Shown: positions 1 to 1,722 of the stretch, one piece after another | Layout: the number at the start of each line of letters is the position of its first letter | How positions within the stretch are numbered: position 1 is the first letter of the stretch | Source of the DNA: Escherichia coli | Lineage (GTDB): Bacteria; Pseudomonadota; Gammaproteobacteria; Enterobacterales; Enterobacteriaceae | Direction: 5' to 3' (one strand) | Length of the DNA: 1,796 bases | NCBI RefSeq assembly: GCF_003334255.1 | Contig: NZ_QOWU01000149.1 | Translations under genes and position numbers: made by a program | Notes under the pieces: model-generated | What the model was told of the DNA's origin: nothing | Database searches by the model: none | Seen by the model: the letters and a program-made list of their open reading frames with translations, nothing else

Positions 1-74
1 TGTGTGAGTTCCGGCTGAATTTGTGGGGAGCGGAGTTTGCGGCGTTCTTACAGTGTAAGCAGTAGGAAAACCGC

Positions 75-96
75 GACGGGGACGAAAGTCCCCGTC
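75..96 (+). other. Perfect 9-bp GC-rich stem (GACGGGGAC / GTCCCCGTC) with GAAA tetraloop; RNA structural element of unknown role in the leader of the first ORF
   Basis: Read directly: 75-83 gacggggac, loop 84-87 gaaa, 88-96 gtccccgtc are exact reverse complements. No U-tract follows on the + strand (aactggttgc), so it is not a canonical intrinsic terminator. It sits 11 nt upstream of a GAGG Shine-Dalgarno at 108-111. Confidence 0.55.
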
Positions 97-121
97 AACT
101 GGTTGCTGAGGTTCAGCCGAT

Positions 122-523
122 ATGGCACCCGTTTCAGGTGAGAGAATGGACGACAGAATTCTCCGGTATATGCAGCGTGTTGTGAGAAATTCCCGCAACC
201 CTGAATTTATGAATGAAGTTAAAGACGCCTGCCTTAAAAAGCAGGCGTTTTGCTTTGAAGCGCCGGATGGTTTTCTGGTGCTGCGTTCTGTGCTCAGTGA
301 CGATGGTATCCCTTATGTTCTGGTGTTACTGGGCGTGTGTACGGGGAGTAAGAGTGTTGAGCGTTATCTGCCGGAGGTGAAGACATTAACCCGCCTGGCT
401 GGCGGACGCTGGGCCGAATTTCATACGGCAAGACGAGGATTTATCCGGCTGGGAAAACGTCTGGGCTTTGAGCGAATGCCGGATGATGAGGATGGCTTCA
501 TGGTGTTCAGGATAGCAGTCTGA
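122..523 (+). CDS. Hypothetical protein, 133 aa; C-terminal region has a weak GNAT-like 'KxLGFE' motif (unconfirmed)
   Basis: ORF with ATG at 122 and TGA at 521-523. An in-frame TGA at 107-109 means the start cannot lie further upstream. GAGG at 108-111 is 10 nt before the ATG; an alternative in-frame ATG at 146 is preceded by AGGTGA (136-141). The ORF is followed by an intrinsic terminator. Product unknown. Confidence 0.7.
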   Translation: MAPVSGERMDDRILRYMQRVVRNSRNPEFMNEVKDACLKKQAFCFEAPDGFLVLRSVLSDDGIPYVLVLLGVCTGSKSVERYLPEVKTLTRLAGGRWAEFHTARRGFIRLGKRLGFERMPDDEDGFMVFRIAV

Positions 524-575
524 CTGCCACTGTATTCATCATCGAGCGTAAACCCACATTGCAATTCACATTCTG

Positions 576-598
576 ACCCTGCTCCGGCAGGGTTTTTT
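576..598 (+). terminator. Rho-independent (intrinsic) terminator, + strand
   Basis: Stem CCCTGC (577-582) / GCAGGG (587-592) with 4-nt loop tccg, extendable by an A576:T593 pair, followed by a T6 run (593-598). It lies 54 nt after the stop of ORF 122-523. On the minus strand there is no U-tract after the stem, so it is unidirectional. Confidence 0.8.
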
Positions 599-605
599 GT
601 TATCT

Positions 606-611
606 GAGGAG
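606..611 (+). promoter_or_regulatory. Shine-Dalgarno (GAGGAG) for the 617-1273 CDS
   Basis: GAGGAG is 5 nt upstream of ATG 617. Confidence 0.75.
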
Positions 612-616
612 CCATT

Positions 617-1273
617 ATGGGCGGAAGTAAAGGTGGTGGTGATACCAAAGTAAAACCAACAGCAGCGCAAATAGCACAGGAAGAGGTGGCCTGGAAAGGG
701 TGGCAGGATTACAAAAATATTCTCCGTCCGGCAGAAGATAACTTCATGAAAAAGGTCGATGACCTTAACAGTGAGCAGCAGTACGAAAATATCGCAGGCA
801 CAACAAATCTTGGGTATCAGAAACAGTTTGGTGAAGCGCGAAGGGAGCTGGCGGGTAATCTTGCTCAGTCCGGCGTTGACCCATCCAGTGGTCGTTTTAA
901 TGCAGTAATGGATGCAAATCAAAGCGACCAGGTGATCGGGCAGATTGACACGACCACACGGGGGCAGGTATCGCAGGCAGATAAATATATTGCCGGGCTA
1001 CAGGATGTTGCGGCTCTCGGTTCCGGTCAGAAGGCAGATGCGTTACAGAGTTTTAACTCGCTGGCAGACAGCAGTCTGGCAAAAGCTAAATCGGACGCAC
1101 AGGCTGCGTTTACGAAACAGCAGGGGCGAGCCTCTCTTGTTGGCGCTGGTCTGGGTGCGGTTGGTGCATATGCGATGCATAAGGCTGGCGGTAGCGGAGG
1201 AAGTGGCGGTGCTAAAACACCTGGCACCGGCGCTAATGCCATTCAGCATCAGGCTCAGAACTGGAGACTGTGA
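617..1273 (+). CDS. Hypothetical low-complexity Gly/Ala/Gln/Ser-rich protein, 218 aa; candidate virion-associated (ejection, pilot or scaffold-like) protein, family not recognised
   Basis: Long ORF with a strong SD (GAGGAG, 5-nt spacer) and ATG start. The N-terminus is MGGSKGGG and the C-terminal region contains AGGSGGSGG. A hydrophobic Gly-zipper-like stretch ASLVGAGLGAVGAYAM maps to about 1130-1177. No cysteine. The stop TGA (1271-1273) lies 2 nt before the next start. Confidence 0.8.
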   Translation: MGGSKGGGDTKVKPTAAQIAQEEVAWKGWQDYKNILRPAEDNFMKKVDDLNSEQQYENIAGTTNLGYQKQFGEARRELAGNLAQSGVDPSSGRFNAVMDANQSDQVIGQIDTTTRGQVSQADKYIAGLQDVAALGSGQKADALQSFNSLADSSLAKAKSDAQAAFTKQQGRASLVGAGLGAVGAYAMHKAGGSGGSGGAKTPGTGANAIQHQAQNWRL

Positions 1274-1275
1274 TT

Positions 1276-1722
1276 ATGGAGTACGGTAAATACGAAACTC
1301 TCGCAAGGGCTGGTTATTCAGGAGCAGCCCGCCCACAGGGTGACTGGCAGACGTCAGCAGCGCTGACACGCCAACAATACGACGACTGGCGAACCAGATA
1401 TTTGCCCCGCGTGGCAAGGCTGGCTGACCTTGGCGAGAACAACAGCCTGATGAATGCGCAGCTTGCCCGGGTGGGCGGCCTTGCCACTTCCAGTCTCCGT
1501 ACAGCGCAGATGGCGCAGGATAACCAGATGGCACGATATGGCGTTAACCGACCTGATAATCCCAACAGTAATACGCTGGGGTTACGTAATGCCCTGGCAA
1601 TTGCTGGCGCGAAAAATGGTATCCGTGAAGCAGAGCAGGATCGTCAGATGAACATACTGACGGGGGCTTCTGCACCTGCAAGACAGCAACTGAGTGTTGG
1701 CGGACAACTGGTGTCAGCGTAA
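1276..1722 (+). CDS. Hypothetical protein, 148 aa from ATG 1276, Ala/Gln/Arg-rich and cysteine-free; translationally coupled to the upstream gene
   Basis: GGAG at 1263-1266 is 9 nt upstream of ATG 1276. The six-frame track starts at GTG 1270, but that leaves only a 3-nt spacer to the SD, so ATG 1276 is preferred. Stop TAA at 1720-1722. The upstream stop and this start form ...GTGATTATG..., typical of coupled genes. Confidence 0.75.
   Translation: MEYGKYETLARAGYSGAARPQGDWQTSAALTRQQYDDWRTRYLPRVARLADLGENNSLMNAQLARVGGLATSSLRTAQMAQDNQMARYGVNRPDNPNSNTLGLRNALAIAGAKNGIREAEQDRQMNILTGASAPARQQLSVGGQLVSA

Follow-up and report, generated by a model that had tools for sequence, protein, structure and literature searches.

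We analysed a 1,796-nucleotide (nt) stretch of Escherichia coli DNA (contig NZ_QOWU01000149.1 of assembly GCF_003334255.1; this whole stretch is hereafter the window), which contains a hairpin between a small open reading frame (ORF), here called ORF133, and a gene that starts at position 617 (the 617 gene) and opens a block named L0130–L0134 in phage 933W. This leader hairpin is probably a Rho-independent terminator that keeps ordinary RNA polymerase out of L0130–L0134 and is read through by Q-modified polymerase coming from the promoter pR′. The hairpin has a terminator's structure, conserved with compensatory changes, is linked to the gene downstream of it, has no promoter beside it and lies within the late operon; from these observations we infer termination at the site, read-through by Q-modified polymerase and an insulating role in lysogens.

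Escherichia phage PhiR5_2 matches the window at 99.8% identity, and many Stx1- and Stx2-converting phages of the 933W/Sp5/phi24B type (Sepvirinae) match it at 94–95%; most of the window is present in about 420 of 5426 complete E. coli genomes. Judging from these matches, it originates from a Shiga-toxin (Stx) phage of this type. In annotated records the genes lie on one strand in the order tail fibre, tail-tip fibre, two small membrane-protein genes (L0126 and L0127 in 933W), lom, hok/sok, ORF133 (933W L0129, Sakai ECs1237, phi24B vb_24B_43 or CM19), the leader hairpin and L0130–L0134. Coordinates are collected in Table 1, where, as in the text, three-digit L numbers denote loci that we compared and four-digit ones 933W genes.

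Structure, conservation and linkage of the leader hairpin

The leader stem pairs G575–C582 with G587–T594 (GACCCTGC-TCCG-GCAGGGTT), giving 8 base pairs (bp; 5 G–C, 2 A–U and 1 G·U) closed by a 4-nt loop, with a ΔG of −14.5 kcal/mol, and runs into a T-run at 593–598 followed by GTT. The T-run ends 7 nt before the Shine–Dalgarno (SD) sequence (606–611) of the 617 gene and 18 nt before its ATG (617–619); both spacings, and the terminator coordinates, had been given in the original prediction and are correct by sequence. A consensus scan ranked the hairpin first among the plus-strand terminator-like sites in the window, which holds eight terminator-like sites compared with 2.0 ± 1.6 in shuffled sequences. 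Its stem-loop is GC-rich, falls within the range of about 5–12 bp typical of intrinsic terminators and has a short loop, with a U-rich tract directly 3′ of the stem on the transcribed strand; structure rather than sequence has been kept in evolution, through few independent changes. No T-run follows the stem on the minus strand, so the hairpin should act in one direction only, on the plus strand. It matches no Rfam family. The SD sequence of the 617 gene is not sequestered and the surrounding region, the hairpin aside, is as structured as shuffled sequence (z = 0.22).

Conservation was assessed at two depths. Among 47 close relatives, which represent 19 distinct variants, none of the 16 stem positions varies, compared with 20 of 63 flanking non-coding positions (Fisher p = 0.008). 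The loop has T or C at one position, the T-run is 6 or 7 long, and 14 of 47 positions vary in the spacer (524–574) that precedes the stem. Relatives retain a purine-rich SD sequence (GGGGG, AAGGAG) upstream of the 617-gene homologue. For more diverged relatives, comprising 10 distinct hairpin variants, the stem pairs were tabulated by script because MAFFT misregistered variants of different loop length. All 80 cells of this stem table are paired, although five of the 16 arm positions vary: pairing is intact through one C–G to A–U double change and through changes of G·U to A–U, G·U to G–C and U–A to U·G. There are six versions of the loop, and 14 of the 22 positions in the leader that follows the hairpin vary. 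A U-tract of at least six is kept in nearly all variants, and throughout the Escherichia, Salmonella and Citrobacter prophages, whose 617-gene products are 56–100% identical, the hairpin lies 21–23 nt before the ATG.

This spacing, strict even where most of the leader positions vary, could suggest that the hairpin works at the RNA level, as a 5′ stabiliser or processing site of the downstream mRNA, a 3′ protective hairpin of the upstream late RNA, or a translational enhancer whose U-tract adjoins the SD sequence. L0116 and L0117, in the head-gene cluster, are each followed by a comparable hairpin, and hairpins in phage head-gene clusters are often thought to set mRNA stability. However, all canonical features of an intrinsic terminator are present, including the near-constant U-tract, the SD sequence is accessible in a region otherwise no more structured than shuffles, and the short distance together with SD requirements can explain the constant spacing. 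We consider an RNA-level role unlikely as the explanation of the hairpin; it is compatible with a terminator role, and the two are not mutually exclusive.

The leader hairpin stays with the downstream gene when its upstream neighbour changes. Four versions of the upstream neighbour were found: ORF133 directly, with a gap of 59–93 nt; a minus-strand Phd/Doc toxin–antitoxin cassette (L121, L141–143); one or two extra small ORFs (Salmonella L137, L139); and a gene unrelated to ORF133 (L134). In L121, L141–143, L134 and L137, where the upstream context has been replaced, the hairpin still lies 22 nt ahead of the ATG that follows. The homology shared by the window and the Phd/Doc variant has its boundary precisely at the stem, from where it extends into the gene; on the other side it stops at the ORF133 stop codon. 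Since the distance to the downstream ATG is fixed in all contexts, the hairpin belongs to the leader of the L0130 block and not to the upstream accessory cassette, and the comparisons mark it as a selected structural element of that leader. In 37 loci from Aeromonas (including phage phiARM81mr), Tolumonas, Serratia, Yersinia and Pectobacterium, ORF133 and the 617-gene homologue are separated by only 6–14 nt, with an SD sequence and no terminator; the Yersinia frederiksenii locus L133, a truncated remnant, was uninformative. The distribution indicates that the hairpin arose in one clade (Escherichia/Salmonella/Citrobacter) as an insertion between genes that abut elsewhere.

These comparisons bear on our first working model, in which the hairpin is the 3′ terminator of a hok and/or ORF133 moron unit that ends lysogenic transcripts and has no tie to the genes downstream. 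In Stx phages the hairpin does directly follow ORF133, the hok region is transcribed in uninduced cells, the ORF133 product CM19 is detected with an antiserum raised against lysogen cultures, and low-GC accessory genes (L0126, L0127, lom, hok and an Eib/YadA-like adhesin) have accumulated between the tail-tip gene and ORF133. ORF133 itself, however, is near-universal and lacks the presence/absence pattern and deviant GC content of a cassette (0.51, against 0.51–0.56 for core genes and 0.40–0.44 for L0126, L0127 and lom), and it abuts the 617-gene homologue in the 37 distant loci. When the context changes, the hairpin goes with the downstream gene and not with ORF133 or any upstream accessory gene, and Salmonella L146 keeps it despite having no accessory genes upstream. 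As the primary explanation, the model was rejected on the evidence of the distant relatives and the rearranged contexts. Ending hok or ORF133 transcripts in Stx phages is better seen as a sub-function of a terminator that guards L0130–L0134 than as a true alternative to it, and we judge a moron terminator without a downstream role to be improbable, if somewhat less so than an RNA-level element.

Promoters, late-operon position and expression

A strict consensus scan found no σ70-like promoter on either strand of the window. With a relaxed σ70 weight matrix, the best score in the hairpin region was 6.88, against a median best of 7.34 in shuffled sequence and 13.3–14.4 for the real promoters λ pR, λ pR′ and lacUV5. 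Motifs for σ54, σE, σ32 and σ28 do not fit in this region either; a σE-like TCTGA at 572–576 has a poor −35 element and is not conserved outside Stx phages. The original prediction had found no promoter between the terminator and the 617 gene, which both σ70 scans bear out, and had proposed promoter prediction with alternative sigma models, which when run gave the misfits just described. It had also offered a promoter within the 3′-terminal part of the upstream ORF, where we found nothing above chance and where relatives swap the sequence while the hairpin–SD–gene unit stays intact.

Unconventional promoters would be invisible to consensus scans, and the downstream genes are less induced than the tail genes, as would suit a block with its own promoter near the hairpin, driven by an alternative sigma factor or a phage activator, and a terminator that separates two operons. 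Yet none of the five sigma-factor motifs rises above chance, and only about 22 nt lie between hairpin and ATG, most of them U-tract and SD sequence. Different contexts share no related sequence upstream of the hairpin, and hence no conserved promoter, and the 6–14 nt junction of the relatives lacking the hairpin rules out a promoter ancestrally. We therefore regard a hidden promoter as very improbable.

The position of the hairpin fits a terminator that is overridden. The 933W record annotates Q, pR′ (20,666–20,693), qut and three tR′ terminators (up to 21,408), with the span from Q to tR′ at 20.2–21.4 kb. The leader hairpin lies at 46,310–46,329, about 25.6 kb downstream on the same strand, and from pR′ to L0134 every gene is on the plus strand except bor; the site is thus downstream of an antiterminated promoter within a continuous run of same-strand genes. 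At this distance from pR′–qut–tR′ it is not the site of Q action. Between genes of the 933W late strand lie at least six strong terminator-like hairpins, one each after the portal gene, L0116, L0117, lom, ORF133/L0129 and L0133. At four of them (after L0116, L0117 and L0133, and the leader hairpin) the SD sequence and ATG of the next gene lie within about 20 nt of the T-run, and two of these, after L0116 and L0117, sit in the head-gene cluster. The five hairpins other than the leader hairpin are not among the features annotated in that stretch of the 933W record. A terminator right before the next gene, with no promoter between, is a recurring pattern in the 933W late operon, as expected if a terminator-resistant polymerase reads the operon.

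Published expression data agree with this arrangement. In Stx phages, Q-dependent transcription runs from pR′ through tR′ into the late genes (PMC7547250). In phi24B, norfloxacin RNA-seq (PMC4651098, SI Table 4) gave late-strand fold changes of 134 for S, 96 for stx, 75 for the small terminase subunit and 30 for the portal gene. The tail genes vb_24B_40 and vb_24B_41, upstream of lom, rose 15.5- and 15.8-fold, and lom itself 3.0-fold, which was not significant. Beyond the hairpin, vb_24B_44 (the 617 gene) rose 8.3-fold (p = 0.039), vb_24B_45 7.0-fold (p = 0.047), vb_24B_47 7.3-fold and vb_24B_48 5.6-fold. Another study of phi24B found lom (CM18) at a similar level in lysogens and induced cells and detected CM19 with the lysogen-culture antiserum, whereas the giant gene CM7 (vb_24B_48) changed significantly on induction, which surprised its authors as the gene lies downstream of lom (PMC3342100). 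The genes right after the leader hairpin thus follow the induced programme, with no promoter of their own found. In uninduced Sakai, the lom–ECs1237 interval, which holds hok/sok, is strongly Hfq-bound (PMC4104026 supplement), so plus-strand transcription starts just upstream of the hairpin in lysogens. The ECs1237–ECs1238 interval is absent from the Hfq cross-linking and analysis of cDNA (CRAC) tables examined from Tree et al. (2014), in which the hok/sok interval is present; this speaks neither for nor against a small RNA derived from the 3′ untranslated region at the hairpin.

We propose that RNA polymerase starting at pR′ would be made terminator-resistant by Q, pass the leader hairpin and transcribe L0130–L0134. 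Long-range terminator resistance of Q-modified polymerase is established in λ. With no promoter after the terminator, the block would be transcribed only by this polymerase, whereas ordinary polymerase on the plus strand, arriving from the lysogen-expressed accessory genes just upstream (lom, hok and others) or from spurious starts, would be halted before L0130–L0134. A second hairpin, inside ORF133 and older, would probably do the same job about 350 nt earlier. We speculate that the block is guarded because it encodes a glycine-zipper peptide, annotated as a bacteriocin, and a giant polyvalent protein that may be harmful when made in a lysogen. Expression through read-through or antitermination, as originally predicted, is thus the most likely course, given the late-strand position in a Q-controlled phage and the phi24B induction data. 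Two details of that prediction need revision: the terminator does not head a separate structural operon, the downstream cluster being one portion of the late operon, and the comparison with the terminator of Q-type late control is misleading, as the true pR′–qut–tR′ switch is about 25.6 kb upstream and the leader hairpin is one of several internal terminators to which a polymerase modified beforehand would not respond.

Several observations weigh against this reading. L146 keeps the hairpin without accessory genes, so blocking lysogenic accessory transcription cannot be the sole reason for its upkeep, and lom has a terminator-like hairpin of its own, so its transcripts may rarely reach the leader hairpin. 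One Salmonella lineage (L139/L140) has a weakened 4-bp hairpin; in this lineage a strong terminator of its own also stands 300 nt farther upstream. Should Q-modified polymerase ignore the hairpin wholly, there would be no lytic effect and the hairpin's selective value would rest on the uninduced state. Finally, fold induction about halves across the region (from about 15.7 to 8.3), which either partial termination or a different basal level would fit.

ORF133, its intragenic hairpin and the neighbouring genes

ORF133 matches phrog_610 and has no Pfam, NCBIfam or PADLOC match; PADLOC found nothing in its neighbours either. An AlphaFold2 model from an 18-sequence alignment (predicted local distance difference test score 90.6, predicted template-modelling (TM) score 0.81) gave Foldseek matches in the PDB that are nearly all GNAT acetyltransferases, including the AtaT, TacT and GmvT toxins, Naa50 and spermidine acetyltransferase (E about 1e-3, query-normalised TM score 0.5–0.62). 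On this model, which is a confident one, we describe ORF133 as a small protein of GNAT-like fold. It adjoins the 617-gene homologue in almost every lineage sampled. Because it abuts that homologue in the 37 distant loci and has core-like GC, it is an ancestral, universal member of the late module that extends from the tail fibre to the giant protein. The ORF had been predicted at 122–523, but its start is probably ATG 146 and not 122: the match to the PHROG profile covers the protein only from residue 9 onward, and where an insertion lies upstream, relatives start at the equivalent position.

All lineages examined, which span Escherichia to Aeromonas and Tolumonas, carry the intragenic hairpin; its ΔG is −14 to −20 kcal/mol. 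Two versions of the coding sequence (CDS) occur, GCC TGC ... CAG GCG (encoding A-C..Q-A) and GCC ATC CGT AAC CGG GTG GCG (A-I-R-N-R-V-A). Since both versions fold, the two arms have changed, and the protein with them, without loss of pairing. In a gap-free alignment of 25 distinct sequences, which are related to one another, 93.5% of stem cells are paired, against 28–54% when the 3′ partner is slid, and four pairs have changed on both sides. The covariation score is 0.252, compared with 0.096 ± 0.016 in shuffled alignments, none of 500 shuffles reaching 0.252. The T-run after the stem reads TTT TTG TTT even in Aeromonas-type loci, where in long ORFs CTG is about three times as frequent as TTG and TTT is about as frequent as TTC. 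These data provide good evidence that the RNA structure has been selected across genera; with related sequences and about four independent events, the evidence is not conclusive. Where the leader hairpin is absent, no plus-strand terminator-like element was found beyond the intragenic hairpin, either in the rest of ORF133 or in the short junction that leads to the L0130 block. Rfam gave a weak terminator-like GlmZ match on it.

Downstream, the 617-gene product matches phrog_611 and, weakly, phrog_8003 (‘virion structural protein’). It is 49% identical to p65 of Aeromonas phage phiARM81mr, annotated ‘putative virion structural protein’. We consider it a probable virion protein from these similarities. 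The third block gene encodes an 83-residue glycine-zipper-like peptide, which some records annotate as ‘bacteriocin’ or ‘Blp family class II bacteriocin’ and which has weak NCBIfam matches to OmpA-like glycine-zipper lipoproteins. The peptide could act on membranes as part of the virion or of the ejection apparatus. A 421-residue gene and an LPD5/LPD38 protein of about 2790 residues (L0134) follow. In Sakai, the homologue of this giant gene, ECs1242 (L049, from 12024 onward), ranks 17th among genes in the Hfq CRAC table of Tree et al. (2014). Its reads fall mostly in the second column of each pair; if that column is the opposite strand, there is abundant antisense RNA inside the giant gene. 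Riley et al. list minus-strand ORFs within it.

A wider reading, which we offer tentatively and would not call likely, is that L0130–L0134, as injected or virion-internal proteins, are guarded by a two-terminator gate passable only to antiterminated polymerase. The older terminator would be the one in the CDS of the GNAT-like gene, kept from Aeromonas to Escherichia by amino-acid-changing compensatory substitutions, and the newer one would have been added to the leader in the Escherichia/Salmonella/Citrobacter clade. Such a gate would silence the block in lysogens and might set its lytic dosage.

Upstream, the sok/hok leader RNA lies outside the window, with an Rfam sok match at L002 8777–8936 (E = 5e-7, under the gathering score). 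The GGCACCC at 124–130 is complementary to the 5′ end of hok mRNA (GGGUGCC, L002 8777), in a fbi/tac-like fold-back pairing, and the ATG at 122 falls within this 3′ element. We take the layout of 74–130 to be that of plasmid R1 hok mRNA. As the fold-back element ends at 130, hok transcription reaches at least about 130, and no terminator lies between this element and the intragenic hairpin of ORF133. The accessory genes lom, hok, L0126 and L0127 were found upstream of the module in none of 34 loci checked in Aeromonas, Tolumonas and Serratia. Both junctions flanking ORF133 are, by the insertions seen there, cargo hot spots: at the hok–ORF133 junction some loci have a 1.6-kb low-GC cassette encoding an Eib/YadA-like trimeric autotransporter, and one locus has an IS21-like element inside ORF133.

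Table 1. Coordinates of features in the window and in related loci.
Feature	Coordinates	Strand	Basis or detail
hok/gef-family toxin gene, 3′ end	1–65, stop codon 63–65	+	RefSeq Hok/Gef CDS ends at window 65
hok mRNA 3′ region	74–130	+	hairpin 74–97, GGCACCC 124–130
ORF133 (probable start)	146–523	+	phrog_610; AlphaFold2/Foldseek GNAT-like fold
Intragenic terminator-like hairpin in ORF133 CDS	224–256	+	stem 224–232 / 241–249, then TTTTGCTTT
Variable spacer, ORF133 stop codon to hairpin	524–574	+	insertion/recombination hot spot
Leader intrinsic-terminator hairpin (putative) and U-tract	575–601	+	hairpin 575–594, U-tract 593–598, then GUU
SD sequence GAGGAG of the 617 gene	606–611	+	read from sequence
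617 gene (933W L0130, ECs1238, vb_24B_44), first of block	617–1273	+	phrog_611
Second block gene (933W L0131, vb_24B_45)	1276–1722	+	phrog_596; 47% identical to phiARM81mr p66
Third block gene, start (83 aa, glycine-zipper-like, annotated ‘bacteriocin’)	1732–1796, runs off window; also L002 10732–10983	+	
Five further late-strand hairpins, 933W (L048)	2079–2102, 4482–4499, 4922–4940, 14100–14118, 17676–17695	late strand	
Leader hairpin and U-tract, Sakai	NC_002695.2 1,293,269–1,293,292		upstream of ECs_1238
Leader hairpin region, phi24B	HM208303 46,433–46,474		
Intragenic hairpin homologues	L052 9055–9090; L096–L132; L135–L149		
Cargo in related loci	L024, L025, L032, L033, L046 (about 1900–3520); L029 1329–3907; L121 6422–7023; L141–143 3152–3753; L137 3134–3935		

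Comparison with known systems

The leader site is a further case of a known kind, the internal terminators of Q-controlled late operons; less ordinary are the context-independent conservation of a leader hairpin and the terminator-like hairpin embedded in ORF133. It was unannotated in the two 933W stretches compared, in which terminators are marked only by pR′, and literature searches on the names ECs1237, ECs1238, L0129 and L0130 found nothing relevant. A terminator here would explain how the last third of the Stx-phage late operon stays silent beside constitutive accessory genes (lom, hok, adhesins), yet is expressed after induction, and the operon is seen to hold a series of internal terminators. 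The practical consequences are modest: strict Q-dependence of L0130–L0134 is expected, which is relevant to expression models of Stx phages and to prophage transcriptomes. The junction on the terminator side is a repeated landing site for toxin–antitoxin and other cargo, and the ORF133 hairpin offers a clean, testable example of RNA structure constraining protein evolution.

Morons are promoter–gene–terminator units inserted in late operons (Juhala et al. 2000; PMC3594210). The leader hairpin resembles their terminators in edging a region of lysogen-expressed accessory genes (lom, hok, Eib-like adhesin), whose transcription it would keep out of the late genes. ORF133, which precedes it, is however an ancestral gene with core-like features, and it is the gene downstream that the terminator accompanies, so the site fails the defining tests of a moron.

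Like the leader site as we interpret it, tR′, the source of StxS in Stx phages, is an intrinsic terminator at which unmodified polymerase halts and which the Q-modified form passes (PMC7547250). tR′ lies a few hundred nt from a constitutive promoter and qut, at the start of the late operon (933W 20.7–21.4 kb). The leader hairpin, in contrast, is about 25.6 kb downstream with neither promoter nor qut nearby, nor gene Q beside it as in a Q-type late switch, and would be a passive barrier and not a decision point.

The closest parallel is with the λ-type internal late terminators that are overridden by Q. Like them, the leader site is on the same strand as the operon of Q, pR′ and qut, has a canonical hairpin and U-tract with no promoter downstream, precedes genes whose expression is linked to induction, and is one of several sites per operon. 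It differs as a lineage-specific insertion that has remained part of the downstream leader across rearranged contexts.

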